A stretch of DNA of 64,000 nt from positions 3,423 to 67,422 of the forward strand of contig JALCDB010000006.1 of assembly GCA_022641095.1 (NCBI GenBank), read 5' to 3'. The notes beneath the pieces are model-generated. The model searched no databases. It was given only the letters and a program-made list of their open reading frames with translations, and was not told where the DNA came from. A program made the position numbers and the translations under genes. Source of the stretch: Bacilli bacterium (lineage in GTDB: Bacteria > Bacillota_I > Bacilli_A > RFN20 > CAG-826). Of this stretch, positions 5,596 through 42,682 are shown piece by piece. Each line of letters starts with the position of its first letter. The first letter of the stretch is position 1.

Positions 5596-6675
5596 TTATT
5601 CTTTGGAACGAGACCGATCAATTTCGTTTCCAAAGACGAAAGACTCGCCCCTCACGATTCTTGGATTCTGATAATAGCCGTTTTTCGCTATTTTCCTGTT
5701 GATCAACCGCACCAGGATGTCGGTTGCCTGTTTGGTCATACTCGTGTAGTTTTGTTTGACGTAACTGAGTTTAGGGCGAAAGACAAGTTTCGGATTGTTG
5801 GTTCCGCCAAGGGCGAACACCGCCACGTCTTTGCCGACTTGCAAATTCCGTTCTCCCGCGGCTTTGTACACCGAGTAAGCGTGATCTCCGGAGCCAACGA
5901 TAAAAGCCCGGTATTCCTGATCAAGCAGCTTTAACGCTTCGATTCTTCCTTCCTCGATGTCCCGTGGCATCGACAAATTGGAAATGTGCCCTTCGAAATG
6001 ATACTCTTCGCTCGCGGCCTTAAACGCGTCGTCGCGATCCCGCCCCACGGAGACGATATCTGAAACGTTGATGAGGGCGATTTTACTAAATCCGGCTTCC
6101 ACCATGGCTTTGGCGACATTCTTCGTGATGTTGATGATTTCGGAATCGACAAAGGAAAAATTTGGGTTGTGAACCTTGAAGTGCGGATTCCCTATGCAGA
6201 CGCATGGGATGCAATTATCCGACAGGCGCTTAACCTTGGCTTCGGATATTTGCGGATTAAGCAAAATCGCGCCATCTATGGGCGAAGAGCCGCTGGAGAG
6301 ATGGCTTACGATCTCGTCTGCGCTGACGCCAAAATAAACCAGAACGTTGTAGCCAAAGGCAAAGGCCTCGGTAATGCAGGATTGCGAAACATCCCGGAAG
6401 AAATGAAGGTACTGGTTCTCCCGCACGTACAAAAAAAGACCGATGATGTGGGTCGAACGGTTGGGCTTGGAGAGAGCGCCAGCATAAAAGTCCGGGGTAT
6501 AGGAAAGGTCTTTGGCGGCATCCAGCACTTTCTCGGTGATGGAAGGCGAGACTTTCTTGGCGCCGCTAAAAACGTTGGAGACCGTCGATTTCGCCACCCC
6601 AACTTTCGTAGCAATATCAATTAATCGGCTTTTTTCTTGCTTTTTAGAGGATACTGGAGAAACGGTTTTTTTCAT
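5596..6675 (-). CDS. LacI-family transcriptional regulator (paralog 1)
   Basis: The HTH reads IDIATKVGVAKSTVSNVFSG...YTPDFYAGALS, followed by a periplasmic-binding-protein-like sugar-binding core. I prefer the ATG at 6675 (MKKTVSP) over the track's upstream TTG at 6693. Confidence 0.9.
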   Translation of the reverse strand: MKKTVSPVSSKKQEKSRLIDIATKVGVAKSTVSNVFSGAKKVSPSITEKVLDAAKDLSYTPDFYAGALSKPNRSTHIIGLFLYVRENQYLHFFRDVSQSCITEAFAFGYNVLVYFGVSADEIVSHLSSGSSPIDGAILLNPQISEAKVKRLSDNCIPCVCIGNPHFKVHNPNFSFVDSEIINITKNVAKAMVEAGFSKIALINVSDIVSVGRDRDDAFKAASEEYHFEGHISNLSMPRDIEEGRIEALKLLDQEYRAFIVGSGDHAYSVYKAAGERNLQVGKDVAVFALGGTNNPKLVFRPKLSYVKQNYTSMTKQATDILVRLINRKIAKNGYYQNPRIVRGESFVFGNEIDRSRSKE

Positions 6676-6888
6676 CGTTAGTATTCTACACAATTATTCC
6701 GCTCGGTTAAAAGCGGGTTTTTGAGGAGCCAGCAACAAAAATAGTTTTTATGAATTGTAAATTTAGAATATTGATATGGCGGTTTTATCAAAAGATTTAA
6801 CGAAAAATCACAAAAAAATAGCATGATAAATGCATTGTTTGCAACGGTTGTTTTCGCCATTTGTAAACTGTTTTCCTGCGAGAGTGGA

Positions 6889-6938
6889 TTGAATATTTCG
6901 TTATTGGTTTTTATAATCATGTTTGAAAACCGGTTTTC
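6889..6938 (+). promoter_or_regulatory. promoter (-35 TTGAAT 6889-6894, 17 nt, -10 TATAAT 6912-6917) plus perfect 14-bp palindromic operator GAAAACCGGTTTTC (6925-6938)
   Basis: Read directly. The palindrome lies between the -10 box and the AAGGAGG RBS (6941-6947) of the gene starting at 6953. It has the central-CG dyad typical of LacI-family operators. Confidence 0.55.
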
Positions 6939-6952
6939 TTAAGGAGGAACTT

Positions 6953-8932
6953 ATGGATAACCGCAAAAACAAATCCGCCTGTCTTATTCTCTCTTCAACC
7001 TTTTTGGCCTTGGCTCTAACGTTATCAGCCTGCGGCAACACGAATCCGCCAACGTCAAGCCCTGACGCAAACAGCGTGACAACAAGCTCAAAACAAACCG
7101 TTGCCCTGGCTGCGCCTGTTGTTTCTTTAAACGGAAAGAACGTTTGTTGGAACGCTGTCCCTGGCGCAACCTCTTATCTCGTCAACATCGACGGAAACGA
7201 AAGCGAAGTGACGGCCACTTCCTATTCTTTGGAGTCCCTGACCGATCCGAAGGATTATAGCGTTTCCGTCAAAGCCAAAGCGGGCGAGGTCGTTTCCTCG
7301 TCATCCAACGTGGTTACTTATGTTCTTACCGTCACCCTTGCCACCCCGGTCATCGCCATTTCTGGCAACCTCGTCAGTTGGGAGGCCGTCGACAAAGCCA
7401 CTTCTTACGAAGTCTTTGTGAACGAGGTTTCCGTTACGACCGTAAGCGAAACGCATTACGCGATCACGGATGAGGACGAGGGAGATTACGTCGTTGCCAT
7501 CAAAGCCCACTCAACGGACACCCATTATCTGACCTCAGATATAAGCAATAGCGTTAAGTACACCATCGCCCCTGCCCCAGAGCCGGTGAAACTGGCCACG
7601 CCAGTCGTCACTTTGGAAAACAAAGTCATTTCCTGGTCGGCGATCGCCAACGCCACAACCTATGAAGTTTATTTGAACGACGCCCTTAAGGACGAAACGT
7701 CGGAGTTGAACTACGATCTCAGTTTGCTGACCGCCGGCGTTTATTCGATTCAAGTCGATGCCTGCAACAAGGCCTCGAGCGATTACTCCACAAGCGACAA
7801 GAGCATCGCGGTCTCTTTAACGATCGAAGACCTCTCGTTCTCGAAACCGATTATCGCCTACTATCCAAGCAGCGACGACGGCAACATCCTTTTGAAAGAC
7901 ACCGATGAAGGCGTCATGCACGAATTCGTGCCGACCGCCACCGACGACTTGGCTTTGAACACTTGGTATTTCGAAGCCGTCGATGGACAGGCGAACACCT
8001 ATTTCATCAAACTTTATAATGGCTATTACCTTACCTATAGTTCCAGCGTCGCCGACGGGTCGGAAACGGTCGCTGACCCAAAACTGCCGAGCGATTCCTC
8101 AAGCATCATCAACCAGGAGTGGAAGATAACCACGAACGGGGATGGATACGATTTGCAGAATCTGGGCCATATCGCCCGTTGGGGGAATTATTACTTCGGC
8201 AAGGTCGATGGGAAGATGAAGTTTGGCTCGGGTCTGAAGGCGTGGCTATTGAACAACAACGCCAACGCCTATATGAATAAGACCAAACTGAGCGCCCCAA
8301 GCCTCACCGCTTCGGGCTATGTCGTGAGTTGGGCTGGCGTCAGCGGCGCCACCGCCTATGAAGTCTACGTCGACGGTGTCTTAGCGGACACGGTCAGCGA
8401 GACGGCCTACACCGTTACGAAGGACTGCAAAGTCCAAGTCAAAGCCATCTCAAGCGACGATGCTTATTTGGCCAGCTACCTCTCATCCAGCGTTGATTGC
8501 AGCGACCTTTTCGCCAAGAAAGTTTGGGCTTATTATAACGGTAGCCACAAGACTTTAGGCTATGTTGACGGCGATGATGGCAATATCTTCAAGATCGGTG
8601 CCGCCTACACCGACGTCAGCGATTACGCCCCTTACGAATGGACGGTTTCCCTCGTTCCTGGGACAAACTATTACACCATCGCCTTCGATAGCGGGTTGAA
8701 TCTCTCCTATTTCGACAATTCCGCCTCTGGGAACGTCCCCCAAACCAAAGCGGTCGTTGCCGACGCCACGGATTCCAAACAACAATGGAAACTCATCAGC
8801 GACGGCACGAATGCCTACAAACTCGAAAACGTGTATTTGTCCAATTACTATTCGAACGTCTACCTTGGCGAATACTACGGCGTTTACAAATTCAACGGCG
8901 TTTGCACGAGTTGGGTGTTCGCCAACGTATAA
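6953..8932 (+). CDS. surface lipoprotein with 4 Fn3-like repeats and 2 beta-trefoil (ricin-B-like) modules; putative glycan-binding protein
   Basis: AAGGAGG lies 6 nt upstream of ATG 6953. The lipobox is LTLSAC. Four repeats carry the SW-AV--A-sYeV motif. The QxW-type motifs QEWKI and QQWKL are present. Confidence 0.8.
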   Translation: MDNRKNKSACLILSSTFLALALTLSACGNTNPPTSSPDANSVTTSSKQTVALAAPVVSLNGKNVCWNAVPGATSYLVNIDGNESEVTATSYSLESLTDPKDYSVSVKAKAGEVVSSSSNVVTYVLTVTLATPVIAISGNLVSWEAVDKATSYEVFVNEVSVTTVSETHYAITDEDEGDYVVAIKAHSTDTHYLTSDISNSVKYTIAPAPEPVKLATPVVTLENKVISWSAIANATTYEVYLNDALKDETSELNYDLSLLTAGVYSIQVDACNKASSDYSTSDKSIAVSLTIEDLSFSKPIIAYYPSSDDGNILLKDTDEGVMHEFVPTATDDLALNTWYFEAVDGQANTYFIKLYNGYYLTYSSSVADGSETVADPKLPSDSSSIINQEWKITTNGDGYDLQNLGHIARWGNYYFGKVDGKMKFGSGLKAWLLNNNANAYMNKTKLSAPSLTASGYVVSWAGVSGATAYEVYVDGVLADTVSETAYTVTKDCKVQVKAISSDDAYLASYLSSSVDCSDLFAKKVWAYYNGSHKTLGYVDGDDGNIFKIGAAYTDVSDYAPYEWTVSLVPGTNYYTIAFDSGLNLSYFDNSASGNVPQTKAVVADATDSKQQWKLISDGTNAYKLENVYLSNYYSNVYLGEYYGVYKFNGVCTSWVFANV

Positions 8933-8955
8933 TCATCGAGGTTTTATCACTCATC

Positions 8956-11586
8956 ATGAAACGAAAGCAATTTTCACTCCTTGCCTTAGCCATGGCCACA
9001 TCGTTATTCGCTTGCAAAGCCCCCGATGGAAGTTCGTCCGTCCCCACGAGCGGCGAGGCTTCCTCTTCCGATGGGACCGCCAAGAAACTCGCCGCCCCGA
9101 CCGTAGTTTTGAAAGATTCGATCGTCAGTTGGAACGCCATTCCTAACGCCGATTATTATCACGTCTACATCAATTCCAACGAAAAAGGAGACGTCTTTGC
9201 CACGCGTTACTCCTTGGATTCCTTAACGGAAGCCGGAACTTACCTCATCCAGGTCAGCGCCGATAACAGCGCCCAGGATGGCGTTTGCTCCGATTTGTCC
9301 AATTTGCTTTCCTACACCGTGTCCGCCAAAGACAGCGCGGTCCCCTTAGCCGTGACATCTCTTGGCTCAAAAGCCGATTATACCTATGACGGCACTTGGA
9401 AGAAAGTTACGGACACCGTTTTGAATCGACAACTGCTGAAAGCCGATCTTTGGAGCGGGTTCGTCAATCAGTTCCGTTCCAACGTCGATGGGGATGGATA
9501 CGGTTGGCGCGGCGAATTTTGGGGCAAGATGATGATGGGCGCGACGGCGATGTACGAACAGAGCAAAGACCCCACGCTTTATCAGATTTTGCTGACGACT
9601 TGCAAGGATATTCTGACTACGCAGAGCCCCGATGGCAGAATCTCCAGCTATGGCCGGCTCAGCGAAGACGACTCCAGCGAGTTTTACGGTTGGGATATAT
9701 GGTGCCGGAAATATGTTTTGATGGGACTGGAAAGTTTTTACGACATTTGCCAAGACGAAAACGTGAAAGCCCAGCTTCTGACGGCCATGGAGAGGCACGT
9801 CGATTACATTCTCCGCTACATCGGCCCCGAAACGGGCAAAAAGAGCATCTTGGATTCCTCGTCGCAATGGGGCGGGCTGCCTTCTTGCAGCATCTTGGAA
9901 GGCATCGTCAAACTATATACGCTCAGCAAAGAAGAAAAATATTTGGACTTCGCGAGCTATATCGTCTCTACCGGTGGCTCGAAATTCGGCAACCTGGTTG
10001 CCCAAGCGATCGTCAATACGACGCTTCCTTATCAATGGGGAAGCCCAAAAGCCTATGAACTGACTTCTTTTTTCAACGGTTTGCTGTCCTACTCATTGAC
10101 TACCGGGGACGCGGACTGCCGAACCGCGGCTTTAAACTACGCCGAGGACTTGCTGGATAGCGAGATCACGTTGACTGGCGGCATGGGATGCGCGGGCGAA
10201 GAATTGAATTATTCGGTGATCGACCAAGCCAATCCGGATCGCACGGGAACGATGCTGGAAACCTGCGTCAGCGTCGAATTGCTCCGTTTCTTTTTGAACG
10301 TCTATCAAGCCACGGGCGATGTCCGTTATGTGGATTCGGCCGAACGGACCCTTTACAACGCTTTGATCGGAGCCGTCGACATGGACTGCAACTATGACCA
10401 CGCTTTCACGAGTTATTTCAACCTGGTTTTTGGCATAAAGACTCGCAGCGCGGCCGGCGGAATGCACATGGCGGAGCGCGATTATGGCTGCTGCATTTCC
10501 TTCGGCTCGGCCGGAACCGGGGCGATTCATCGTTACCAGATCGTCGAAAACGGGGCCGATCGCTACTTATTGAATTTTTATTTACCGGGAACGGTTTCCT
10601 TTGCTTTGGCCAGCGGGCAGAAGGTCAAGCTAACCACCGAAACCAATTACCCTTATTCGGGCCTTGTTTCCATGAAAGTTGGCTTGGAAGGACCCGCTGA
10701 ATTCCGTTTGGGTTTGCGCATTCCTTCCTGGTCAAAACAAACGACAATCGCGGTCAATGGCATGGCGCAAACCATCAGCCAATCGGGTTTTGATTACCTT
10801 TTGGAAAGAACCTGGCAAAACGGCGACCTCATAACGATGAAAATGGATATGAACCCCCGCCTTTATTGGGGATCGAGACTTTGCCTCAACAAGAACGCCC
10901 AATACAACGTCGCAATCAATTATGGGCCGTTGGTACTGGCTCGCGATCGTCGGTTGGACGAAGGCAATATCTTCCAAACCATTCATATGAAGACAATCGA
11001 CGGGGCTCCGGTTCTTACCGCGAGCAAAACGGCCGCTTTCTTCACCCAAGCGGAATTTTCCCTTAGCTTAGAAGACGGAACAAACGTGCATCTGATCGAT
11101 TACGCTTCCGCGGGCAAAACATATGACCTCAGTTCCCTTTACACCGTTTTCATGCCCACTACGGATTATTGGAATAAAATCTCTGACATGAGCAAGAAAC
11201 TCGTTCTCGTTTCGGAAGACAACTCCGCTCTAATTTCCTTATCGAGCGACGGCAGCCGGTTCCAGATGGGTGGTTTCTATTACGATCATGAGAACGAACT
11301 CGGCAAATGCGCTTTCAATATCACGGACCGAGGCGATTCTTACTATTCCTTGGATTGGTCCGCAAGCGGATTGTCCTTGACCGCCGACGGCGCCACCGCC
11401 GTTCCGAAAGCCTATGACGGCGGCGATGACCAGCTCTTCAAGATCGATCGTTTGAATCTCGTCTCCTATGCCTTTATCAGCAAGAGCGGAGGCGCTCTTC
11501 TCTCCGTGGATGGCGACGGGCTTAATCTCCATCTCTATTCCGATTGCTCGAGCCCAAAGCAGCGCTGGAAAATCATTAACGCCTAA
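8956..11586 (+). CDS. surface lipoprotein, GH127/GH146-like (DUF1680, beta-L-arabinofuranosidase fold) with an N-terminal Fn3-like and a C-terminal beta-trefoil-like module
   Basis: I use the ATG at 8956 (MKRKQFSLLALAMATSLFAC lipobox) rather than the track start at 8785. The GH127 hallmarks MLETC (Glu-x-Cys) and DYGCC (Cys-Cys) are present, and TLYNALIGAV resembles the family. The C-terminal motif is KQRWKI. Confidence 0.7.
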   Translation: MKRKQFSLLALAMATSLFACKAPDGSSSVPTSGEASSSDGTAKKLAAPTVVLKDSIVSWNAIPNADYYHVYINSNEKGDVFATRYSLDSLTEAGTYLIQVSADNSAQDGVCSDLSNLLSYTVSAKDSAVPLAVTSLGSKADYTYDGTWKKVTDTVLNRQLLKADLWSGFVNQFRSNVDGDGYGWRGEFWGKMMMGATAMYEQSKDPTLYQILLTTCKDILTTQSPDGRISSYGRLSEDDSSEFYGWDIWCRKYVLMGLESFYDICQDENVKAQLLTAMERHVDYILRYIGPETGKKSILDSSSQWGGLPSCSILEGIVKLYTLSKEEKYLDFASYIVSTGGSKFGNLVAQAIVNTTLPYQWGSPKAYELTSFFNGLLSYSLTTGDADCRTAALNYAEDLLDSEITLTGGMGCAGEELNYSVIDQANPDRTGTMLETCVSVELLRFFLNVYQATGDVRYVDSAERTLYNALIGAVDMDCNYDHAFTSYFNLVFGIKTRSAAGGMHMAERDYGCCISFGSAGTGAIHRYQIVENGADRYLLNFYLPGTVSFALASGQKVKLTTETNYPYSGLVSMKVGLEGPAEFRLGLRIPSWSKQTTIAVNGMAQTISQSGFDYLLERTWQNGDLITMKMDMNPRLYWGSRLCLNKNAQYNVAINYGPLVLARDRRLDEGNIFQTIHMKTIDGAPVLTASKTAAFFTQAEFSLSLEDGTNVHLIDYASAGKTYDLSSLYTVFMPTTDYWNKISDMSKKLVLVSEDNSALISLSSDGSRFQMGGFYYDHENELGKCAFNITDRGDSYYSLDWSASGLSLTADGATAVPKAYDGGDDQLFKIDRLNLVSYAFISKSGGALLSVDGDGLNLHLYSDCSSPKQRWKIINA

Positions 11587-11597
11587 GGAGGCCCCCC

Positions 11598-14372
11598 ATG
11601 AACTACCGAAAAAGAATCTTCGTCTTCTTGCTCTCGGGGGCCCTCGTCTCTTGCGGAATCCCTAGTCAAAGCGATTCGACGCCTTTAACAAGTGGGAGCT
11701 CTTCCTCCTCTGCCGTCGTCGACAACCAAAAGGACCTTTTCTTCAAAACGCCGGGTTTCGCCGATTGCGTATACGTGCTTTCCTATTCTTCGCTAAGCGC
11801 CGATGAGTTCGCGATCGCCGGGGCCTTGCAGGGGATTTTGGCGCAGAAGGCCAGCGAATTGTATATCCAGGGAGCCGACGGAGACGATGGAAGCTGGTTC
11901 CAAGCCTGCAAGAGCCGTTATGGCTTCGCCAGTAAAAGCCTCGCTTCGATTTGGGACGCCGTTGACCAATTCTCCTCCCGAATCAAAGGGCAGAAATACG
12001 TCGTCTACGACAGCCAGGCATCCGGGGCTTCCTATAGCGACGATAGCATCAACCAAGCCGCGGTGATCGCCGCTTGCGAAAACTATCTGCCCATACCCTC
12101 TTCTTTGGTGGGCAAAGCCCAGGGGCATGGCCTAAGCCAAGGCGAAGACGCACGGAACTACACAACCAGAACGGTCTTCGAAAAATACAAGGACCGATTG
12201 AATAACGCTTTCTTGATCCATCAGTCCCCCAGCAATTATTTCCTCCGCGATTATGGCATCGCGGGCAAAGCGATGTGCTTCTATTCTTCGACCGATGACT
12301 ATGAGGTTTCCAATGAGATCAAAAGATGGGCGAAGGCCAATGCCCCGATCTTAGGATGGACCGACAACGAGGTCGATTTCGTTTCCTCGAACTCTTTGCT
12401 TTCCAAGATAACTTACGCCGCCGATTATTCGGCCAATCTTTCGTTTTATTCGGCCGCTTCGTACAAAACGTTGACCCAAAGGAAAAACGATAGCCCCATA
12501 ACGCCGGAAAAAGGCAAACATTACGCCGCCATCCTTATGAGCGATGGCGACAACATCCAATGGATGGAAAACGACTTCTCGACGTCCAATAAATACTATG
12601 GTTCCCCGAAGCGGGGCGCTTTCCCGGTCACTTGGACCACGTCGCCCGCCCTTTATGACCTCGCTCCGAATATCCTTAAGGATCTCTACGACAAGGAGAC
12701 CGCCAACGACGACTTCATCGCCGGCCCTTCGGGAGTGGGTTACGTCAACCCTTATGATTACGCTTCTTCTTCCATCGACGAATACGCCGCGAAAACCGCT
12801 TCTTACATGAAGGCCAGCGACCTGCACTGCGTCAACCTGCTCGACGGCGTCGTTCCCGATCCGGAGAACCGCTCCGAAGTCGTTGCCCCATTCGCCAAGC
12901 AAGAGGGGATCGAAGGCGGCGTTTGGTCGCTTGGCGATTACTACCTGGGCGGCAACGGATCCGTGACTTGGTCCAATGACAAACCTTTCGTCTCCGTTCG
13001 CGAGAGTCTATGGCTCGACACTAACGCCACCGATCACAACAAATACTACGGCTATCCGGAACGTATCGCCCAACGGGTGAACGCCTATAGAAAGGATTAC
13101 ACAAAGATCGAAGGCTATTCCGTGATCCTCGCTCACGTTTGGAGCGCTGGCACGATGCAAGGGGTGAGCCGTTTGGCCTCGTGTTTGGACGACGATGTTG
13201 TTTTGGTGAGCGTTCCTCAGTTATTACGGTTGATCAAAGACAACGTCCCCCATAACAACGTCGACACTCTCAATGACATCAAACCAAGCGATTTCGACGG
13301 AAACTTAACCCCGCTTCTTTCCGAGCAATACGACGTCGCGACGCTTAGCGCGGTCACGACCAGCGACACTCGGGTTTTTGCCTTTAGCGACGCCACTTCA
13401 AGCCTTGGTTGGCAGTTAGGAAACGGCGGAGAGCAATATGATTCCTCCCGTTTTGCCGACGCCTCGGGTGGCGGGGCTCCGGCGATCTGCCTCGATGGGT
13501 CCGATTTGGGGAACGTCGCCGATCCCTATCCCAACGCTTGGGCTTATAACCGCTTCGTTTTGTCGAGCGATTCCTCAAGCGACAATTGGCTGAATCTCCA
13601 TTTAGGAGGCTCTTCCGGCAACGTCGATGGGAACTTCCGAGTCAGGGTCTTGGAACTCAATAACGGAAAGATCGTTTCCACGACTTTGGTGTCTCCGGAC
13701 TACACAACCGAGGTCAATGAATTCGGATATTACCTGCACACTTCTTCTTCCCCTGGCCGTTATGCCTTCGACCTCGCTCCCTTCAAGGGGAAAAACGTCA
13801 TCGTTTCCCTTGAGCAAGACGACAGCGGCGAAGGCAGCGGCGAGGCGATCTATTTATATCGGATCAGCATCGACGCCGCGCGCGAGGTGGCGGGCTCAAG
13901 GACTTGGTGGGACAACGAGTATCTCTTTCTGGATTGGAATAAATCCGGAACGGTGGCTCGCCTTCCCGAAGGCGTGTCTTTGGAAGCGAGCAACGGCCCT
14001 TCTTCCATCAGTGACGGGATCGCCATTACGAACGAATTGAAATACTTGAAGTTCTACGTTCGCATGTTCATTCGAAGCGGCACCCAAGCCGATACGTCGC
14101 CCGAGCTTTCCTTCAGCGTGAACGGCACCCAAGTCAAGCCTTTCGGCGTCGAGGGAACGACTCTGACGATCGCGAGCGATTATTATCGTTGCTGCGCCTA
14201 TGATCTGTCCGCTTACGTCGGAACGAAGGCGAAAGTGACCCTCACGTCGCTAAAGGGCGAGCACGCGGCGATTTATTTGGCCAAACAGGACGGCGTTTGC
14301 ACTAACGCCGAGGTGAATTCGCTCTATTCCGAAGCTCAGTTAAAAGAGATGGTTTCCAAGCTCGCGGTTTAG
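11598..14372 (+). CDS. GxGYxYP-family putative glycoside hydrolase, lipoprotein, with C-terminal beta-sandwich-like modules
   Basis: AGGAGG lies 6 nt upstream of the start and the lipobox is LVSCG. The family motifs are ILMSDGDNIQW and AGPSGVGYVNP. The C-terminal module contains SLEQDDSGEGSGE. Confidence 0.75.
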   Translation: MNYRKRIFVFLLSGALVSCGIPSQSDSTPLTSGSSSSSAVVDNQKDLFFKTPGFADCVYVLSYSSLSADEFAIAGALQGILAQKASELYIQGADGDDGSWFQACKSRYGFASKSLASIWDAVDQFSSRIKGQKYVVYDSQASGASYSDDSINQAAVIAACENYLPIPSSLVGKAQGHGLSQGEDARNYTTRTVFEKYKDRLNNAFLIHQSPSNYFLRDYGIAGKAMCFYSSTDDYEVSNEIKRWAKANAPILGWTDNEVDFVSSNSLLSKITYAADYSANLSFYSAASYKTLTQRKNDSPITPEKGKHYAAILMSDGDNIQWMENDFSTSNKYYGSPKRGAFPVTWTTSPALYDLAPNILKDLYDKETANDDFIAGPSGVGYVNPYDYASSSIDEYAAKTASYMKASDLHCVNLLDGVVPDPENRSEVVAPFAKQEGIEGGVWSLGDYYLGGNGSVTWSNDKPFVSVRESLWLDTNATDHNKYYGYPERIAQRVNAYRKDYTKIEGYSVILAHVWSAGTMQGVSRLASCLDDDVVLVSVPQLLRLIKDNVPHNNVDTLNDIKPSDFDGNLTPLLSEQYDVATLSAVTTSDTRVFAFSDATSSLGWQLGNGGEQYDSSRFADASGGGAPAICLDGSDLGNVADPYPNAWAYNRFVLSSDSSSDNWLNLHLGGSSGNVDGNFRVRVLELNNGKIVSTTLVSPDYTTEVNEFGYYLHTSSSPGRYAFDLAPFKGKNVIVSLEQDDSGEGSGEAIYLYRISIDAAREVAGSRTWWDNEYLFLDWNKSGTVARLPEGVSLEASNGPSSISDGIAITNELKYLKFYVRMFIRSGTQADTSPELSFSVNGTQVKPFGVEGTTLTIASDYYRCCAYDLSAYVGTKAKVTLTSLKGEHAAIYLAKQDGVCTNAEVNSLYSEAQLKEMVSKLAV

Positions 14373-14480: not shown

Positions 14481-15440
14481 TCAGACCTTCATCCAAAGCG
14501 CGGCGGCGCCGAGGATGCCGGCGTCGTTGCCAAGGCTCGACACCACGATGTCAACCTTCGGCGAATGGGACCCGCCAAAGCCAAAACCCTGAGAAGCCAC
14601 ATAGGCGACTAACGGCTTCGTCAAAGCTTCTTTCTGCCCGGACAGGCCGCCGCCCAAAACGATGGCGTCAGGACGGAAAACGTTGATGAAGTTCAGACAA
14701 CCCTCGCCTAAGAAGCGAATGTATTGATCCACGACCTTCTGAGCTGAGGGATCACCCTTTTTGGCGCATTCGAAAGCCGTGAAGCCGCTAACTTTGGCGA
14801 TGTCGCCGCCAACGTAACCCCACATCGCCGACTTAGGGTCTTTCCGCATCGCCCCTAAGGTGTCTTTGATCAAGGCGCTCACCGAGGCGTAGGCCTCTAA
14901 GCAACCAAAACGGCCGCAAGTGCATTCGCGGCCATCCATTACCAAAAGGGAGTGGCCAAGCTCAGCCCCCTTGCTCTCGTTGCCTTCATACAACCGGTCA
15001 TTAAGATACAGGCCGCCGCCAACGCCGGTGCCCAAAGTCAGCATGACGACGCTGTGGTAGCCTTTGGCGGCGCCTAAACGAACCTCACCAAGGATCGCCG
15101 CGTTGGCGTCGTTCATGACTTTCGAAGGGATCGAGGTCAGTTTTTCGACGATTGCTACAACGGGAAGGTTTTCCCAACGAAGGTTATTGGAATAATCGCA
15201 ATACCCGGTGGTCGAATTGATCGATCCTGGGCAACCAATTCCGATCCCTGAGATATCTTTCGGGGACAAGGCATTGTCCAAAAGGGTCTTGTTGATCAGT
15301 TTCCCTAACTCCAAAAGGGTCTCCTCGCCACTCTTGCGGGGGTCGATGCGAAAAGAAAAGCGGACAAGCAGTTGGCCTTCTTCGTCCACGATCGCGGATT
15401 TGATGGATGTCCCGCCGATATCAACGCCGATGATTTTCAT
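14481..15440 (-). CDS. ROK-family sugar kinase (gluco/manno/fructokinase type)
   Basis: The N-terminus is MKIIGVDIGGTSIKSAIV and the ROK Zn motif is CTCGRFGCLEAYAS. It has an ATGA overlap with the upstream isomerase gene. Confidence 0.85.
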   Translation of the reverse strand: MKIIGVDIGGTSIKSAIVDEEGQLLVRFSFRIDPRKSGEETLLELGKLINKTLLDNALSPKDISGIGIGCPGSINSTTGYCDYSNNLRWENLPVVAIVEKLTSIPSKVMNDANAAILGEVRLGAAKGYHSVVMLTLGTGVGGGLYLNDRLYEGNESKGAELGHSLLVMDGRECTCGRFGCLEAYASVSALIKDTLGAMRKDPKSAMWGYVGGDIAKVSGFTAFECAKKGDPSAQKVVDQYIRFLGEGCLNFINVFRPDAIVLGGGLSGQKEALTKPLVAYVASQGFGFGGSHSPKVDIVVSSLGNDAGILGAAALWMKV

Positions 15441-16348
15441 AATTTCCTTACCTGAGTCAACACGAATCCCCCACTGCCTTTTAGGCTCCCTTTTTGGCCG
15501 CAGGGAAGAAAGAAAGTGTCGCCTTTATGGTAATCCATCCCCGCGAAAACCCCTTCCCCTGAAATGAAAGTGAGGGAAGCGAAGGACTCTTTCGGGGCTG
15601 CGATTTCGCAAAAATCATTAGCCGCGTACGCATAGGCCTGGAAATACTTCGAAGCCCCGATGCATGGGCGTTTGAAGATAATGGGTCGATACGGTTCAAA
15701 GTCCATGACCAGGAGGGCTTTATCAAGATTCAATTGCCTTGGCTTGCCGTCTTTGCCTAAACGTTTGTAGTCATAGAGACGATAGGTCAAAGTGCTGTTC
15801 TGTTGAATCTCAATGAGAGTGATCCCCTTCCCGATCGCGTGGACCGTCCCCGAAGGGATGAAATAAACCTCCCCCGGCTTCGCTGGGCAAAAATTAAGGA
15901 GATCTACGATCGAATCGTCTCTGACCGCTTTCCGTACCTCCGCCGCCGAGGTCTTTCTCCTGAAGCCAACATAAAGCCCCGCGCCTTCCTCCGCCTCGAT
16001 GACATACCACATTTCGGTTTTGCCATACTGGCCTTCCTTGGATAAGGCGTAATCGTCGCCCGGATGAACCTGAACCGATAGATTATCGGCCGAATCGATG
16101 AGTTTGATTAAGACCGGGAAAAAAGGAAAGCCCGAAGGAACCGGGCCCACGTCCGCCACGGTTGCAACATCCTTCAAATAACGGCCCTCGTCCTTGCCGG
16201 ATGCGATGAGGGATGGACCATCCGGATTGAAAGAAAGTTCCCAACATTCGGCGATGGAGTCGCTAAGAGAGGCCTTGCCCCAACCCTTCAGTTTCGTGCC
16301 GCCCCAAATGTAATCTTTGGTAGCTGGTTTTAGTTTGACGATATCCAT
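15437..16348 (-). CDS. manA: class I mannose-6-phosphate isomerase (cupin)
   Basis: The motifs are LSVQVHPGDDYA, GKTEMWYVI and YFIPSGTVHAIGKG. At about 300 aa it matches the Bacillus-type PMI. Confidence 0.8.
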   Translation of the reverse strand: MDIVKLKPATKDYIWGGTKLKGWGKASLSDSIAECWELSFNPDGPSLIASGKDEGRYLKDVATVADVGPVPSGFPFFPVLIKLIDSADNLSVQVHPGDDYALSKEGQYGKTEMWYVIEAEEGAGLYVGFRRKTSAAEVRKAVRDDSIVDLLNFCPAKPGEVYFIPSGTVHAIGKGITLIEIQQNSTLTYRLYDYKRLGKDGKPRQLNLDKALLVMDFEPYRPIIFKRPCIGASKYFQAYAYAANDFCEIAAPKESFASLTFISGEGVFAGMDYHKGDTFFLPCGQKGSLKGSGGFVLTQVRKL

Positions 16349-16361
16349 TTTTCTTACCTCC

Positions 16362-16376
16362 TAAGCCTTAGGCTTA
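16362..16376. promoter_or_regulatory. 7-1-7 palindrome TAAGCCT-t-AGGCTTA in the divergent manA / membrane-protein intergenic region
   Basis: Read directly, immediately upstream of the manA RBS. A weaker GGAAA-N5-TTTCC dyad lies at about 16410-16424. Confidence 0.3.
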
Positions 16377-16476
16377 TCAACGAAACGCTATTTGGAATCC
16401 CTTCAGATTGGAAATGGTTTTTCCCCTCATAAAACCATGGGACAAACACAGGTGGAATGGTAAACTATTGGCGAGA

Positions 16477-17328
16477 ATGAAGAAGTCTGATTTTCTAAGC
16501 AAACTGATCATCGGCGGGGAAGAGGGGGAGCGCCTTCCTTCTTTTCGAAAAGAGCAGTTTTTGTATATCGTTCGGGACCATTACGTCTTGGTTTTCCTGT
16601 CAGGGTGGCTACTGTTTTTGTTCGTTCTACCCGCTTTGGGTTATCAAGTTTATATGAGTTACCAACTCTCCTTGATATCCGACCCCACCACCTCGGATTT
16701 GCTGTCTTGGAGTCTTACCGCTTACGGGGTGATGATTCCTCTCGTCGCTCTTGTTTTCCTTGGTTTGTGCGGCGATTTTTGCCTTCTTTCCCAATTTGTC
16801 AAAGGCCGCTCCGCCACTTTGGGGACCTTCTTCCGCGGGATTAAGGAGAATTGGGCGCGTTCCCTCTTTTTGGGGCTCCTTTGCGGCCTCGCCCTGTTCT
16901 TGTCCGTTTTCTCCTATATCTACTACGCGAGAAGCGTAAACAATCTTCCGCTACGCTATTTCGCCAGCGCTTTCACACTGTTCATTGGGTTCCTTTTGGT
17001 CTCTTTCAGCCTCTATGCCTTAGGGGTTCAGGTCCACTATAGGAATCCCTTCGGCGCTTATCTTGGCACTTCGCTTCGGCTTTTCGCCAAGCGGATGCTT
17101 CCCGCCTGCGCAATGAGCTTCTTGATTGTGGGGGGGTTCGTAGGCCCAGCCTTGTTAAAAGGGGGTTGGCAGTTTGGCGCATATCTCATTGTCTTCTTCC
17201 TGTTTATGCCGCTCCTTTGCCTCGGCTACAACGAATATCAGGCGTTCGCGTTCGACAAAGACGTGAACCAAACGCTCTTCCCCAATCATTTTCGGGAAGG
17301 GCTCGATCGGCACAAACCTAAAGAATAA
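16477..17328 (+). CDS. multi-pass membrane protein, DUF624/YesL-like
   Basis: It has several hydrophobic helices, and FFRGIKENWARSLFLG resembles the YesL-family signature. I prefer the ATG at 16477 over the track's TTG at 16408. Its 3' end overlaps the convergent HAD gene by 11 nt. Confidence 0.5.
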   Translation: MKKSDFLSKLIIGGEEGERLPSFRKEQFLYIVRDHYVLVFLSGWLLFLFVLPALGYQVYMSYQLSLISDPTTSDLLSWSLTAYGVMIPLVALVFLGLCGDFCLLSQFVKGRSATLGTFFRGIKENWARSLFLGLLCGLALFLSVFSYIYYARSVNNLPLRYFASAFTLFIGFLLVSFSLYALGVQVHYRNPFGAYLGTSLRLFAKRMLPACAMSFLIVGGFVGPALLKGGWQFGAYLIVFFLFMPLLCLGYNEYQAFAFDKDVNQTLFPNHFREGLDRHKPKE

Positions 17329-21157: not shown

Positions 21158-21174
21158 GGGAAAAGTGTTTTCCC
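21158..21174. promoter_or_regulatory. inverted repeat GGGAAAA-GTG-TTTTCCC between the predicted -10 box and the RBS of the GH38 operon (operator variant)
   Basis: Read directly. Its placement matches that of the GAAAACCGGTTTTC sites at other operons. Confidence 0.4.
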
Positions 21175-21235
21175 GTTTCTCCGTTTTATAGATTATAGCC
21201 CCTAGTATTTTTTGTAAATAGGAAACCGGTTCGCG

Positions 21236-21264
21236 TTGATTATGTTTTAGGACTCTTTTATAAT
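21236..21264 (+). promoter_or_regulatory. promoter (-35 TTGATT, 17 nt, -10 TATAAT) positioned for a leaderless transcript of the 21271 gene
   Basis: The TATAAT ends 6 nt before ATG 21271 and there is no SD sequence. An AAACCGGTT half-operator (about 21223-21231) abuts the -35. Confidence 0.45.
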
Positions 21265-29402: not shown

Positions 29403-32138
29403 ATGAAACATCTAGCAAAACCTATCGCTTTGATTCTCTCGGCTCTCGCTTTGGCGGCGTGCGGCGACACGACTTCTTCGCTTGCCCCGACCTCCGTAAG
29501 CGGGGGAACCTCCTCTTCAGCGACGGCGTCGGCAACCACCAGCTCAACTTCGGCGAAAACCGCTTTGGAGGCGGCGGCCGTTTCCCTATCGCACTACACC
29601 GCAAGTTGGTCCGCGGTTGCCCACGCCGATGGCTACAAACTCTATTTGAATTCCGCGTTTTTGAAGACCAGTTCCGATCTTAGTTACGACTTCGACACCA
29701 CGATTTCGACAAAGCAGACGCTTTACGTCGTGGCAAGCGACAGCACGGGGGCTTATCTTGACGGCCCTTCCTCAAACTCCATTGAGTTCGTCGCGCCTTC
29801 TTCCTTAGAGGCGCCGCTCATCAGTTTCGATTCCGCTTCGAAGACCGTCAGTTGGTCGGCGGTAAGCAACGCCCTGACCTACATGGTGTTCGAAAACGGG
29901 TCCTTCATGGTCGAGACCGACAAACTCGCCTACACGGTAACCGATACCAACGTCGGCGCTTACTCCATAACCGTCAACGCCAAATACGGCGATTTGATGT
30001 CAGGTTACAGCAACGCCGTCGTTTACAAAGTCCTGCCAGAGACCATTGCGACGGCGGTTAAGTGGGATCGGGCGGGCTTATATGGCGATGACTGGACTCG
30101 GAGCGGCAGCTTCAATGAGGGCGTTGGCGAAGGCTGCGACATGCAGGCTGGAGCCAGCATGCTCATGGCCCACGCCATCACCGCCGATTGCCAATATCTC
30201 CGCGTGTCGATGCGGGTCTTCCACCGCGATGGGGAAACCTATCCGAAGTTTTACGTTTACGTCGACGGCGTGCTGAGCAGGGCGATCGGTAGCGCAAACG
30301 ATTATGTCACCACCGACCTCGATGCCGGAGCCACCTTCGACTACGACCTGACCTCAAAAGTCGGGGAAACCGTCATCATCGAGTTCAAGGAAACGGCCTC
30401 AACCCACACTTGCATCACCGGCGTATCGATGGTGAAGGCCCTAGGCGCCTCCCTTTCCTCGAAGACCTCTTGGAGCCGGAGCGAATTCTACGATGAGTGG
30501 TTCTGCGAAGGAACCTTCAATACCGGCGTCGGCGAAGGCGTTGACTTTACCGGAAGCGGCGCCGCCAGCATCATTTTGAACATCACCGCGAATACCAGAT
30601 TCTTCAACGTTGGCATTCGTCAGTTCGAGAACCAAGATTCCGACAAAGCACACCTGGCCCTCTACGCCAACGGAACGCTCGTCAAGACCGCCGATGGCGA
30701 TGATTATGCCGTATCAAGCCTTGATGGATCCACAATGGTTTATGCCTGGGATCTCAGCGAATACATCAACCAAAATGTCACTTTTAAATTTGCTTCGCTT
30801 GTCTCGAGCGTTAACCATTGCGTCGGAACGAGCTTTGCCTTAACCGCCACCTCCGAGTCAACCGTCCCGGGCAACGGTATGGTCTTAGCAAACGCTACCG
30901 CTTGGACAGGTGACCAAATCTCCTCGGATGAGGCTTGGGTAAAATCAAGCGGCGCCGTTCTTCGCAATGAGGGTTTCGATTTGGCCCATGGCGAGAGCGC
31001 GATGACTAAAATCGCCATCGCCTCTTCGACCGAATATCTCAACATCAAGTCTAGAATGTACGCCGGGCAGGATAGCGGGGCTTCCTTGCTTCAAGTCAAA
31101 GTGAACGGCGTCGCCATAAAAGCGGTCAACAGCGATTTCGACACTTTCCCGGTGCCGGTTTCCGATAGCGAGTTCGTCTATGCTTACGATCTGTCCGCCT
31201 TCACCGAGCTGAAGCCGGTCATAACCATTCTTAACGCTTCGGACTCGGCCAACCACATGGTCTTGACCAACGTCGAATTCGGCGCGGCCGACGCCCATAC
31301 CGCCGCCGACAACTACAATGTCGCGGTCACGGATTTCGATCGTGCTTACCTTTATTCGAAGTGGACGATTTCGGGTAGCAACACCGGCGTCGGCGAAGGC
31401 GTCGACCTCCAAGGCGCTGGCACGATGAGTTATCAATACACCGTGGACGCGGCCACCAAGCTTGTGAACGTGAAGACCCGTATCTTCAACGGACAAGACA
31501 GCGACAACGCTTCCTTTGTCTTCAAAGCTGGAAATACCGTAATCAAAGCCGTTAATAACAGCGCCGATTCCTGCGTCTTGCCGGCGGATACCGACAACTC
31601 GACTTGGTGGACTTTCGATCTCTCTTCCTACGTCGGAAGCCAAATCACCGTTTCCATTGCCTCGAACAACAGCAAGGTCAACCACATGGTCGTTGAGCAC
31701 GTGACATTGAACGCCATAGACGCCCACACGAACGAGGCGTTAACCGCCTTCTATCCCAACGCCATTAACACTTACTGGACCGTTGCGGACGCTAACACCA
31801 TCAACGAGGGCATCGACCTTGCGGCTTCCGGTTCTGTCAGCTATGTTTATAGCGTTGCTGACGCCACGAAAGCCCTAAAGATCAATAGCCGCATCTTCAA
31901 AGGGCAAGAAACCGTCCAGCCACAACTTGAGGTTATGGTCGGCACGACCATTATCAAAGCCAACGGCTTGGCCACCGATGCCGCTTCCCTTGCCATCGAC
32001 ACCGACAGCACTCAGACCTTCCAATATGATTTGAGCGCTTACGTTGGGCAAAGCATCAACGTCAAAATTCTTTCGATCCAAGGGCTTAATAACCACTTGG
32101 TCTTACAAAGCGTCTATTTAAACTCAGCTATCGCTTAA
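29403..32138 (+). CDS. 911-aa surface lipoprotein: 2 Fn3-like repeats plus 5 copies of an unassigned ~125-aa module
   Basis: The lipobox is LALAAC. The internal repeats are marked by N(E/T)G(V/I)GEG(V/C)D...G.G and end in -NH-V-. No catalytic motif was recognised. Confidence 0.75.
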   Translation: MKHLAKPIALILSALALAACGDTTSSLAPTSVSGGTSSSATASATTSSTSAKTALEAAAVSLSHYTASWSAVAHADGYKLYLNSAFLKTSSDLSYDFDTTISTKQTLYVVASDSTGAYLDGPSSNSIEFVAPSSLEAPLISFDSASKTVSWSAVSNALTYMVFENGSFMVETDKLAYTVTDTNVGAYSITVNAKYGDLMSGYSNAVVYKVLPETIATAVKWDRAGLYGDDWTRSGSFNEGVGEGCDMQAGASMLMAHAITADCQYLRVSMRVFHRDGETYPKFYVYVDGVLSRAIGSANDYVTTDLDAGATFDYDLTSKVGETVIIEFKETASTHTCITGVSMVKALGASLSSKTSWSRSEFYDEWFCEGTFNTGVGEGVDFTGSGAASIILNITANTRFFNVGIRQFENQDSDKAHLALYANGTLVKTADGDDYAVSSLDGSTMVYAWDLSEYINQNVTFKFASLVSSVNHCVGTSFALTATSESTVPGNGMVLANATAWTGDQISSDEAWVKSSGAVLRNEGFDLAHGESAMTKIAIASSTEYLNIKSRMYAGQDSGASLLQVKVNGVAIKAVNSDFDTFPVPVSDSEFVYAYDLSAFTELKPVITILNASDSANHMVLTNVEFGAADAHTAADNYNVAVTDFDRAYLYSKWTISGSNTGVGEGVDLQGAGTMSYQYTVDAATKLVNVKTRIFNGQDSDNASFVFKAGNTVIKAVNNSADSCVLPADTDNSTWWTFDLSSYVGSQITVSIASNNSKVNHMVVEHVTLNAIDAHTNEALTAFYPNAINTYWTVADANTINEGIDLAASGSVSYVYSVADATKALKINSRIFKGQETVQPQLEVMVGTTIIKANGLATDAASLAIDTDSTQTFQYDLSAYVGQSINVKILSIQGLNNHLVLQSVYLNSAIA

Positions 32139-32362: not shown

Positions 32363-33376
32363 CTATTGTTTTCTGTTCGCGACGAACGAATCGCCAAACG
32401 TCAGCTTGCTCTTGATAACCAAGTGGCTTCTCGTTCTCTCGTGGTCGACCATCGCAATGAGGATTTTCGATGCGGCCTCTCCAAGCTTGGCATAATTCTG
32501 TGAGGCATATGAGAGCGACGGGCGAAACGCTTTCTCGTTTTTTGAGGCTGGGCCCAAGGAAAAGACGGCAATATCCTTGCCAACCCTTTTCCCGCTTTCT
32601 TTAATCGCTTGATAAGCCCCTTTTGCGGAATTCGGGGTGGCGCATATAATGGCGCTAGCCCCGCTTCGGATGGCTTTTTTAGCCACTTCGTATCCCTCAT
32701 CGGCATCAGCGGTTCGAAGAGGGTAAGTCAGCCCCTCGCTTTTGTCCAGAGCTTGGCAAAAAGCCTGGCGTTGAATCCGCCCCAAAGTCATGGACTCCGT
32801 CACGTGGAGAAAGGCGATCTTGCTGTGCCCAGCTTCTTCCATGAGTCTCGTGACGACCATGACGAGTCCCTCGTTATCAACGTCGACGTATTTTAAGCGG
32901 CGGGGGGCAGCGAACATCGGTTTGCCAATGGTGACGCACGGCAATTCGTCTTTCTTCAGTTGCTTAATACGGGCGTCGTCAAACGTCGGGTTGACGAGAA
33001 TGGCGCCAGCGATAGGCGTCGACTTGGCCTTCAGGCATTTCAGAAACTCATCATTGCTCAAACCTATGAAGACAAGGACCTTCTTCTTTCTTTGGCTAGC
33101 CACGCGCAACACCGCCCCCACCAGCGTGTCAAAATAATTCAGATAGACGTTGTGATTCGACTCCAAAAACAAGCCGATGATACTGTCATCCTTCTTGCCA
33201 GAGAGGCCCACCGCGTAGAATCCTGGAGTGTAATCTAGCTTTTTTGCGGTTCTCAAAACTTTGGCTTTGAGTTCGGGCGAAACGAAGGCACGGGAGGAAA
33301 AAACATTTGATATCGTGCTTTTGGTGACGCCAGCCGCTTTGGCGACATCGTTGATGGAGACGCTTTTTTTCTTCAT
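32363..33376 (-). CDS. LacI-family transcriptional regulator (paralog 3)
   Basis: The HTH reads INDVAKAAGVTKSTISNVFSS...YTPGFYAVGLS. It starts 1 nt after the stop of the upstream gene. Confidence 0.9.
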   Translation of the reverse strand: MKKKSVSINDVAKAAGVTKSTISNVFSSRAFVSPELKAKVLRTAKKLDYTPGFYAVGLSGKKDDSIIGLFLESNHNVYLNYFDTLVGAVLRVASQRKKKVLVFIGLSNDEFLKCLKAKSTPIAGAILVNPTFDDARIKQLKKDELPCVTIGKPMFAAPRRLKYVDVDNEGLVMVVTRLMEEAGHSKIAFLHVTESMTLGRIQRQAFCQALDKSEGLTYPLRTADADEGYEVAKKAIRSGASAIICATPNSAKGAYQAIKESGKRVGKDIAVFSLGPASKNEKAFRPSLSYASQNYAKLGEAASKILIAMVDHERTRSHLVIKSKLTFGDSFVANRKQ

Positions 33377-42566: not shown

Positions 42567-42578
42567 GGAATTCCTCCT

Positions 42579-42594
42579 AAAAAACCGGTTTTTT
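42579..42594 (-). promoter_or_regulatory. 16-bp perfect palindrome AAAAAACCGGTTTTTT directly upstream of the RBS of the 42566 operon, with a putative promoter (-10 TAGAAT complement of 42603-42608, -35 TTGCAT complement of 42625-42630)
   Basis: Read directly. The architecture matches the 6925 site. Confidence 0.5.
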
Positions 42595-42664
42595 GTAATC
42601 TCATTCTATCATTAGCAAGATTTAATGCAATTTTTTTAAGCAAACTGAAAGTTAAAATACCAAA

Positions 42665-42682
42665 ATAAAAACCGGTTTTTAT
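42665..42682 (-). promoter_or_regulatory. second operator-like palindrome ATAAAAACCGGTTTTTAT, about 87 bp upstream of the first
   Basis: Read directly. On the minus strand it is preceded by TGTTATAAT, an extended -10-like element. Confidence 0.45.

Follow-up and report, generated by a model that had tools for sequence, protein, structure and literature searches.

A three-module glycan-utilisation locus built around GxGYxYP proteins in a predicted wall-less member of the Bacilli

The window analysed here, a 64,000-nt stretch of contig JALCDB010000006.1 from a Bacilli bacterium, carries between its positions 5596 and 42566 a compact set of genes for glycan capture, cleavage, import and catabolism, among which no endo-acting glycanase can be recognised. 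The locus raises the question of which glycan it serves and which of its proteins cuts the polymer. The answer that we rate somewhat above even chances is a single LacI-controlled regulon of three modules, with which a wall-less bacterium of the RFN20 type would bind and trim a glycan containing mannose, import the products and catabolise them; this glycan is most likely one with a high content of alpha-mannosides. Judging from residue conservation and supported by genomic context, proteins of the GxGYxYP family appear to be the best candidates for the missing glycanase activity.

The glycoside hydrolase (GH) family 38 protein of the window is 97% identical to its homologue in the metagenome-assembled genome (MAG) UW_MP_BACIL6_1 (Bacilli; RFN20; CAG-826; UBA4951), a 1.29 Mb genome of 80% completeness from anaerobic reactors fed with milk permeate (PMC9302107). 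Peptidoglycan and sortases are predicted to be absent from the CAG-826 family (PMC10868615), which fits the lipoprotein nature of all surface components of the cluster.

Every gene class named in the original prediction was found by ORF listing and searches of Pfam-A (2025), NCBIfam (2026) and PDB sequences, i.e., three LacI regulators, an ATP-binding cassette (ABC) importer, GH38, a HAD hydrolase, ManA, a ROK kinase, GH127-like, GH172 and GxGYxYP proteins, and large lipoproteins; lipoboxes and signal peptides were read directly from the protein N-termini. The gene list itself needed correction, since two open reading frames (ORFs) had been over-extended (starts at 8785 and 6923, true starts at about 8956 and 6954) and a membrane-protein gene at 16408-17328 was absent from it. 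The predicted limits of the cluster were right, because the flanking genes, an RHS protein and small lipoproteins upstream and a STAND NTPase onward downstream, are unrelated to glycans. The arrangement is that of a Gram-positive LacI/ABC-type polysaccharide utilisation locus (PUL), in which a regulator, permeases dependent on a substrate-binding protein (SBP), surface proteins and cytoplasmic exo-glycosidases stand together, and supports the view of the region as a dedicated glycan-utilisation cluster.

Three modules and a shared candidate operator

The region consists of three separable modules, each headed by its own LacI regulator. Module A contains LacI_A, a ricin-B lectin (RicinB) lipoprotein (Lipo669), the GH127-like lipoprotein, GxGYxYP_924, the ROK kinase and ManA. 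Module B contains the HAD and GH38 proteins, the cytoplasmic GxGYxYP_493, LacI_B, the ABC importer, the surface protein GxGYxYP_775 and Lipo911, a lipoprotein with five modules resembling carbohydrate-binding modules (CBMs). Module C contains Lipo954, Lipo980, GH172 and LacI_C. Their separability is seen in related genomes, whose loci are numbered here with the prefix L. Module A (LacI, RicinB lipoprotein, GH127-like and a GxGYxYP protein of about 900 aa) occurs with an ABC importer of its own in L009 and L011, followed in L009 by a fusion of phosphomannose isomerase (PMI) and kinase. Module B is found in an Izemoplasmatales MAG with its gene order kept (LacI, cytoplasmic GxGYxYP, GH38, HAD, SBP, two permeases, surface GxGYxYP and large lipoproteins), while module C is found only in sister species of the genus of the window, where all three modules are again adjacent.

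A 14-bp palindrome, RAAAACCGGTTTTY, links the modules. Its copies with no more than one mismatch lie at 6925, 23831, 23904, 42580 and 42667 and nowhere else in the 64 kb (five sites against 0.28 expected; none of the shuffles reached five). All five sites fall in the control regions of three surface operons, running from Lipo669 through GH127-like to GxGYxYP_924, from the SBP through Lipo911, and from Lipo954 through LacI_C, and each lies between a good promoter-like element and the ribosome-binding site (RBS). Generic scans for promoters and terminators gave totals no higher than chance; of their results we used just the three top-ranking promoter-like sites, all of which fall on the operator regions. 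In related loci the operator gave 70 matches in 39 loci, compared with about two in first-order Markov simulations; because many of these loci are related, the matches do not represent 70 independent events. The motif nevertheless recurs beside GxGYxYP loci in other, distant taxa, and in the Izemoplasmatales locus L010 the equivalent of the GH38/GxGYxYP_493 intergenic region contains two good copies. Since one motif precedes all three surface operons and recurs beside GxGYxYP genes elsewhere, the three modules probably form one regulon, or a regulon with cross-talk. We infer that the three paralogous LacI regulators recognise this common operator, and the pairing of each regulator with particular candidate sites is proposed on the same footing. 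We did not find an earlier description of a conserved operator at GxGYxYP loci.

The AANCGNTT core of the motif is typical of LacI-family operators. An identity as a cre site bound by CcpA was rejected, as the sites track local LacI/GxGYxYP loci; the outer positions of the palindrome also differ from the cre consensus.

Table 1. Features of the glycan cluster, with coordinates in the window
Feature	Position	Strand	Evidence
LacI_A, LacI-family regulator of module A	5596-6693	-	Pfam LacI and Peripla_BP_3
Operator-like palindrome GAAAACCGGTTTTC	6925-6938		8 bp after a TTGAAT-17-TATAAT promoter-like site, just before the RBS
Lipo669, surface lipoprotein	6954-8932	+	Pfam RicinB_lectin_2; lipobox LSAC; internal repeats
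GH127-like lipoprotein	8956-11586	+	PF07944 (101 bits), PF20736 (66 bits)
GxGYxYP_924, surface lipoprotein	11598-14372	+	Four Pfam GxGYxYP domains; match to 3sgg, E 1e-48
ROK-family sugar kinase, cytoplasmic	14481-15440	-	Pfam ROK, 220 bits
Type-I PMI (short Bacillus-type ManA)	15437-16348	-	PMI_typeI_cat; TIGR00218, 98 bits
Multi-pass membrane protein	16408-17328	+	NCBIfam MusI_fam, E 6e-5 (weak)
HAD-IA (beta-phosphoglucomutase-like) hydrolase with 75-aa N-terminal extension	17318-18295	-	Pfam HAD_2
GH38 alpha-mannosidase, cytoplasmic	18297-21143	-	Four GH38 Pfam domains
Divergent GH38/GxGYxYP_493 promoter region	21159-21236		Degenerate operator-like palindromes GGGAAAAGTGTTTTCCC, GGAAACCGGTTCGC
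GxGYxYP_493, cytoplasmic paralogue	21271-22752	+	Pfam; no signal peptide; E...SDGDN conserved
LacI_B, regulator of module B	22755-23768	+	Pfam
Two operator copies upstream of the SBP operon	23831-23917		AAAAACCGTTTTTC at 23831, GAAAATCGGTTTTC at 23904
ABC importer, SBP	23934-25241	+	SBP_bac_8/1; lipobox LTGC
ABC importer, two permeases	25245-26177, 26135-27061	+	BPD_transp_1
GxGYxYP_775, surface lipoprotein	27058-29385	+	Pfam; 44% identical to GxGYxYP_924
Lipo911, lipoprotein	29403-32138	+	Internal repeats: two Fn3-like, five of about 140 aa
LacI_C, regulator of module C, last gene of operon	32363-33376	-	Pfam
GH172 (DUF2961) protein, 1130 aa	33378-36770	-	Pfam DUF2961, 123 bits
Lipo980, degenerate GxGYxYP-like lipoprotein, 980 aa	36767-39658	-	BLASTP E 1e-10; hhalign 98%, E 2e-13
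Lipo954, near-orphan lipoprotein, 954 aa	39702-42566	-	Three Fn3-like repeats and about 650 aa all-beta (predicted)
Module C control region	42580-42734		Perfect operators 42580-42593 and 42667-42680, downstream of a TTGTTA-18-TATAAT promoter-like site (42705-42734, minus strand)

The GxGYxYP proteins and the enzymes around them

GxGYxYP-family proteins alone occur in every module, and the putative catalytic residues are kept in three of these four members. These three score 157 to 188 bits on the Pfam models (GxGYxYP_C and the N-terminal repeat domains), above the gathering threshold, and retain the equivalents of Glu272, Asp331, Asp333 and Asn334 of BT2193, whose structure (3sgg) is the sole one of the PF14323 family in the PDB. 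The corresponding Glu and Asp-x-Asp-Asn columns are invariant in 14 diverse family members. GxGYxYP_924 combines a complete catalytic-type region, with E...SDGDN conserved (its Glu is E258), and two C-terminal beta-sandwich modules. Export, predicted for all GxGYxYP proteins of the cluster, holds for GxGYxYP_924 and GxGYxYP_775 and fails for GxGYxYP_493, which is cytoplasmic, as its N-terminus carries no signal peptide, and whose orthologue holds the equivalent position in L010. The fourth member, Lipo980, recognised solely through BLASTP and hhalign (probability 98%), has SDGDN replaced by CEDAL and the GxGY motif deleted, and is therefore probably non-catalytic; it had no PDB sequence match. 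Lipo980 had been counted among four large non-catalytic lipoproteins, a description that stands insofar as none of the four has a Pfam catalytic domain, and is corrected by its recognition as a degenerate GxGYxYP homologue.

Pfam-A and NCBIfam matched no endo-glycanase family (e.g., GH76, GH99, GH26, GH5 or GH183) in the 20 proteins, in agreement with the original prediction. None of the four large lipoproteins could be assigned to a known endo-acting GH family, and Lipo954 and Lipo980 were also without a PDB match. The proposal that the GxGYxYP proteins supply the missing depolymerase thus gains support from context, as they are common to all modules and keep putative catalytic residues. The idea that they are hydrolases is not new. 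The family was proposed as a novel glycoside hydrolase linked to alpha-mannan loci with GH38 and GH92; its genes are found in the alpha-mannan-responsive BT3853-62 PUL and beside GH92/GH38 in Caldithrix (Rigden et al. 2014, PMC4071793).

Metagenomes scanned with an alignment of GxGYxYP proteins yielded 79 loci, which after ORF clustering were grouped into 30 lineages. ABC SBPs and permeases neighbour GxGYxYP genes in 11 lineages, as do LacI regulators; CBM-repeat lipoproteins like Lipo911 do so in seven, GH38 with HAD in five, GH127-like with RicinB in five and PMI in three. A second GH38 subfamily, GH92, an MsmK-type ATPase and a PTP-like phosphatase appear in two lineages each, GH125 in one (L016), and GH172 only in the genus of the window. 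From these counts, alpha-mannosidase families are the dominant carbohydrate-active enzyme partners of this GxGYxYP clade, a result that widens the link to alpha-mannan genes described in 2014 (PMC4071793). The PTP-like, phytase-type phosphatase (PF14566) recurs in two distant lineages (L080-L094) and is a second phosphatase type associated with GxGYxYP, unrelated to HAD.

In module B, the N-terminal catalytic barrel, the middle domain and the two C-terminal domains of GH38 all score above their cut-offs, the metal-site motif HWDREW is visible, and the nearest relatives of known structure are GH38 enzymes from Enterococcus and Streptococcus pyogenes (E 1e-74 to 1e-79). The adjacent HAD keeps its DxD motif and had no relative among PDB sequences. 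It belongs to a family of about 5000 homologues, 60-70% identical across phyla, that usually stands beside GH38 (here also in L004, L005, L007 and L010) and often beside a URO-D-like gene; one Pirellulales MAG has, in this order, genes for HAD, GH38, a URO-D-like protein, an SSF transporter and three GxGYxYP proteins. The URO-D-like gene (PF01208) recurs with HAD, with or without GH38, in Pirellulales, in Oscillospiraceae and in one other genome (L004, L005, L008). In L008, the HAD/URO-D-like pair lies among GH63/MGH1-like genes and sulfatases, where GH38 does not occur. The membrane protein had no Pfam match; it is a conserved neighbour of such ABC loci, with homologues in 10 related loci. 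The cluster encodes no ABC ATPase, and the suggestion that a shared MsmK-type ATPase acts in trans is plausible, given that relatives hold such an ATPase within the equivalent locus. Lipo911 had no Pfam match; an AlphaFold2 model of one of its repeats (pLDDT 84) matches CBM6, CBM36 and CBM35, suggesting a putative surface glycan-binding protein with five CBM6/35/36-like beta-sandwich modules. Its homologues adjoin GxGYxYP in 20 loci.

In module A, the ROK kinase scores 231 bits on TIGR00744, under the cut-off of that model, and ManA contains the motifs QVHP, TEMWY and GTVHA. With GH38, these two enzymes would complete a route from mannosides to fructose-6-phosphate, as had been predicted. Directly upstream of the ManA RBS lies a perfect 15-bp palindrome, TAAGCCTTAGGCTTA (16359-16376). 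Its sequence bears no relation to the shared operator, and it could give ManA-ROK a control element of their own. Lipo669, a putative glycan-binding protein, combines two ricin-B lectin domains with four Fn3-like repeats, and its homologues adjoin GH127-like and GxGYxYP genes in L009, L011, L025 and L034. The GH127-like lipoprotein carries an N-terminal Fn3-like module and a C-terminal ricin-B domain. Aligned with HypBA1 and the Geobacillus GH127 from the PDB (51-88 bits), it appears to keep the Glu, Glu-x-Cys and Cys-Cys positions. Its AGEEL, LETC and GCC segments fall on the reference motifs, with the CACCPxN context changed to GCCISF and a gap needed there. In HypBA1 these residues are the acid/base E322, the zinc-binding E338 and C340, and the C417/C418 pair that includes the nucleophile. 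No equivalog-level NCBIfam model matched (the best, aceric acid hydrolase, reached 106 bits against a cut-off of 950), and a literature search revealed no newer GH127 or GH146 specificity bearing on mannose.

In module C, the GH172 protein has a signal peptide, no lipobox and additional beta-sandwich modules. Its LEGDE...GTGTED segment has the same 21-residue spacing as the catalytic residues in 8ah3 and 7v1v, and it keeps both glutamates and the adjacent aspartate defined in DgGH172c (E233, E254 and D255; PMC10115798). Similarity to characterised members is only 34-58 bits, so that transfer of their alpha-D-arabinofuranose (Araf) or alpha-D-fructofuranose (Fruf) specificity is unwarranted. 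Lipo954 had no match in Pfam, NCBIfam or PDB sequences, and of two homologue searches one gave three relatives and the other, across 1.84 billion representative proteins, seven; a profile could not be built from so few. An AlphaFold2 model of its C-terminal 659 aa, built on a three-sequence alignment, is all-beta with a pLDDT of 48.8; its Foldseek matches (reelin, Cry and tandem-CBM arrays) had TM scores below 0.2 and were treated as uninformative. In the sister species L012 (Ga0183100_1000022, positions 1-9100), a separate sugar locus that is absent from the window lies next to module C. It encodes a GntR regulator, a MalK-type ATPase, a cytoplasmic 518-aa DUF5005/DUF4185 protein (GH183-like, 45 bits), an SBP, two permeases and a DUF624 protein.

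Substrate and alternative readings

Taken together, the following pathway can be proposed. Four lipoproteins would bind the polymer at the membrane, namely Lipo669 with its ricin-B domains, Lipo911 with its five CBM-like modules, the degenerate GxGYxYP protein Lipo980 and the beta-rich orphan Lipo954. The two surface GxGYxYP enzymes would cut it there, helped by the glycosidases GH127-like and GH172 in an accessory or cap-removing role. The sole ABC importer, energised by an ATPase encoded elsewhere, would take up the oligosaccharides, which GxGYxYP_493, GH38 and the HAD phosphohydrolase/mutase would break down to mannose in the cytoplasm; the ROK kinase and ManA would then convert mannose to fructose-6-phosphate. 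The three LacI paralogues would repress the surface operons through the shared operator until an oligosaccharide inducer appears. The mannan PULs of Bacteroides thetaiotaomicron include phosphatases, and by analogy the HAD may, speculatively, dephosphorylate phospho-manno-oligosaccharides. Gene content, localisation signals, conserved catalytic motifs, modularity, the operator with its conservation and the neighbourhood counts are shown by the analysis; all enzymatic specificities, the nature of the substrate and the part played by the HAD are inferred in this scheme.

Several observations weigh against this mannoside regulon. The GH38 promoter in the window has only degenerate operator copies, and no operator copy is recognisable upstream of ManA-ROK. 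Among the more distant GxGYxYP loci, about one in two lacks any neighbour related to mannose, and no role on mannans is known for GH127 or GH172. The GxGYxYP members of the B. thetaiotaomicron mannan PULs are reported to show no activity (PMC4071793), and in the literature since 2014 on GxGYxYP, PF14323, BT3857 and BT3859 no member has a demonstrated activity. Finally, the reactors were fed with lactose-rich milk permeate, which offers no obvious mannan; the substrate would have to be microbial biomass.

The alternative that survives best, although we consider it unlikely, is that GxGYxYP proteins are not glycoside hydrolases at all, and act instead as esterases or deacetylases, as phosphodiester-cleaving enzymes on phosphoglycans or as binding proteins, with the depolymerase elsewhere, for example in Lipo954. 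Their C-terminal barrel resembles the seven-stranded barrels of the CE4/allantoinase type, and the B. thetaiotaomicron members are reported to be inactive (PMC4071793). The recurrence of phosphatases beside GxGYxYP (HAD here and in five lineages, PTP-like in two) and the unassignable nature of Lipo954 point the same way. However, the Glu and Asp-x-Asp-Asn positions, invariant across diverse members, are lost exactly in the paralogue that also misses the other motifs, and the presence of surface and cytoplasmic paralogues fits a glycosidase pattern in which polymer and then oligosaccharides are cut. Moreover, Lipo954 occurs in this genus only, and its predicted structure is all-beta, built of repeated sandwich modules.

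Less probable again is the original prediction that the whole cluster targets one mannose and furanose heteropolymer, in which GH172 and GH127-like remove furanosyl side chains and GxGYxYP cuts the backbone; actinobacterial lipoarabinomannan or arabinomannan (alpha-mannan with D-arabinan) and fungal galactomannan are candidates. The only GH172 activities on record are on alpha-D-Araf and alpha-D-Fruf, the catalytic residues of GH172 are intact here, and the common operator and the adjacency of the modules in sister species make such a target possible. Nevertheless, a single heteropolymer is not required, because the modules are separable (A and B stand alone in other genomes), GH172 accompanies this GxGYxYP clade in this genus only, and the GH127-like module travels with PMI and kinase. 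The last point leaves the furanosidase assignment of GH127-like uncertain, as no arabinose-catabolic genes accompany it. Furthermore, the substrate of GH127 is beta-L-Araf while D-arabinan contains beta-D-Araf, and GH183, GH116 and galactofuranosidase families were not found in the window with Pfam. The DUF4185 gene of the sister species, which abuts module C and would favour D-arabinan, was down-weighted because the match is weak, the protein cytoplasmic, its GntR regulator separate and the locus absent from the window.

A similarly low probability is given to three independent side-by-side loci with different substrates, whose shared operator would reflect recent regulator duplication; examples would be beta-L-arabinofuranosylated plant glycoproteins for A, high-mannose N-glycan or yeast mannan oligosaccharides for B, and alpha-D-fructofuranosides or D-arabinan for C. 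Each module has a LacI of its own and occurs separately elsewhere, LacI_A is only 35-37% identical to the other two paralogues, and module A has its own importer in other genomes; against this stand the single importer for all three modules in the window, a GxGYxYP-family protein in each of them, the company of PMI and kinase in place of arabinose genes around module A here and in L009, and the same operator consensus at all three surface operons, conserved beside GxGYxYP in distant taxa.

The mannoside regulon can be extended to a more daring proposal, to which we give only a minor chance. The GxGYxYP proteins would form a new family of glycoside hydrolases, or of enzymes that cleave glycosyl phosphodiesters, with mannose-containing glycans of microbial envelopes as substrates (candidates being yeast phosphomannan and actinobacterial lipomannan or lipoarabinomannan), and the HAD-GH38 pair would handle phosphorylated manno-oligosaccharides. 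Genome-reduced, wall-less bacteria of the RFN20/Izemoplasmatales type would thereby scavenge the envelopes of their neighbours. Should the substrate prove to be microbial envelope mannan, a life by scavenging would be indicated for the uncultured RFN20 lineage.

The GxGYxYP family is large and over-represented in gut bacteria, and it has had a structure and a predicted glycoside-hydrolase function since 2014 with its activity still undemonstrated. This locus overturns nothing, and gives a tractable route to the function of the family in an unusually clean setting, as surface and cytoplasmic paralogues stand in one putative regulon with the conserved partners GH38, HAD, PMI and kinase, under a conserved candidate operator, in a small genome with few competing pathways. 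It also suggests that a predicted peptidoglycan-deficient bacterium builds a whole surface glycan-harvesting apparatus from lipoproteins alone, devoting about 2-3% of a 1.3-1.6 Mb genome to the cluster.

Flanking genes and closest known systems

Upstream of the cluster (19-5511), the gene of a 1081-aa RHS-repeat protein precedes three small lipoprotein genes in tandem (3261-4097, 4094-4807 and 4654-5511), which are 76-91% identical, share the signal sequence ...LVGLSMLLSSCDV and have no Pfam match; the RHS protein may be a toxin, and the lipoproteins its array of immunity-like or variable partners. Downstream, the stretch 42600-56000 has a G+C content of 41-47%, compared with about 52%, and encodes a STAND NTPase, a MerR protein with a zinc ribbon, a fused ABC exporter, a HATPase_c_4/winged helix-turn-helix protein, Fic and a UvrD-like helicase of 1262 aa. 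The stretch resembles an inserted island of defence or mobile character, and the GntR/ABC sugar locus takes its place in the sister species L012. Further on (56386-60811) lie a 1122-aa surface protein with BspA-type leucine-rich repeats and a Listeria-Bacteroides repeat and a 345-aa Big_2 protein, followed at 60844-63914 by two ORFs with no Pfam match.

As a Gram-positive-type LacI/ABC glycan locus, the cluster is of a known kind; what is unusual is a composition centred on an uncharacterised family, a host predicted to lack a wall and a conserved operator. The GH38 protein is nearest to the firmicute cytoplasmic GH38 systems that act on N-glycan-derived mannosides (SpGH38, 2wyh; Enterococcus faecalis, 3lvt/5kbp), in which GH38 is likewise cytoplasmic and beside a carbohydrate ABC importer and a ROK kinase. 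The window differs in having no GH85/GH18 endo-N-acetylglucosaminidase, GH125 or GH20. The conserved HAD partner and the GxGYxYP paralogues present here are, to our knowledge, not part of the described streptococcal GH38 loci.

With the HypBA1-type GH127 clusters of Bifidobacterium longum, the locus shares PF07944 and PF20736, and the Glu, Glu-x-Cys and Cys-Cys residues appear to be retained. The similarity is only 51 bits, CCPxN is replaced by CCISF, and the protein is here an extracellular lipoprotein with Fn3 and ricin-B domains, accompanied by GxGYxYP and PMI/kinase in place of GH121/GH43 and arabinose catabolism. The D-arabinan systems of Dysgonomonas gadei and Microbacterium, which combine GH172 exo-alpha-D-arabinofuranosidases with GH183/DUF4185 endo-arabinanases, share the catalytic Glu, Glu and Asp of GH172 (PMC10115798, PMC10509167). 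The window contains neither GH183 nor GH116, and GH172 is here a secreted multidomain protein of 1130 aa that stands with a degenerate GxGYxYP protein and an orphan lipoprotein.

Another close counterpart is PUL 69 / MAN-PUL3 of B. thetaiotaomicron (BT3853-BT3862, with the GxGYxYP proteins BT3857 and BT3859; PMC4071793). That system relies on SusC/D with hybrid two-component or extracytoplasmic-function sigma factor regulation and on GH92 and GH99, whereas the present locus has the Gram-positive-style LacI/ABC/lipoprotein arrangement with GH38, HAD, PMI, ROK, GH127-like and GH172, in a host predicted to be wall-less. In both, the GxGYxYP paralogues are uncharacterised, are clustered with alpha-mannoside-active enzymes and divide surface from periplasmic or cytoplasmic steps between them.

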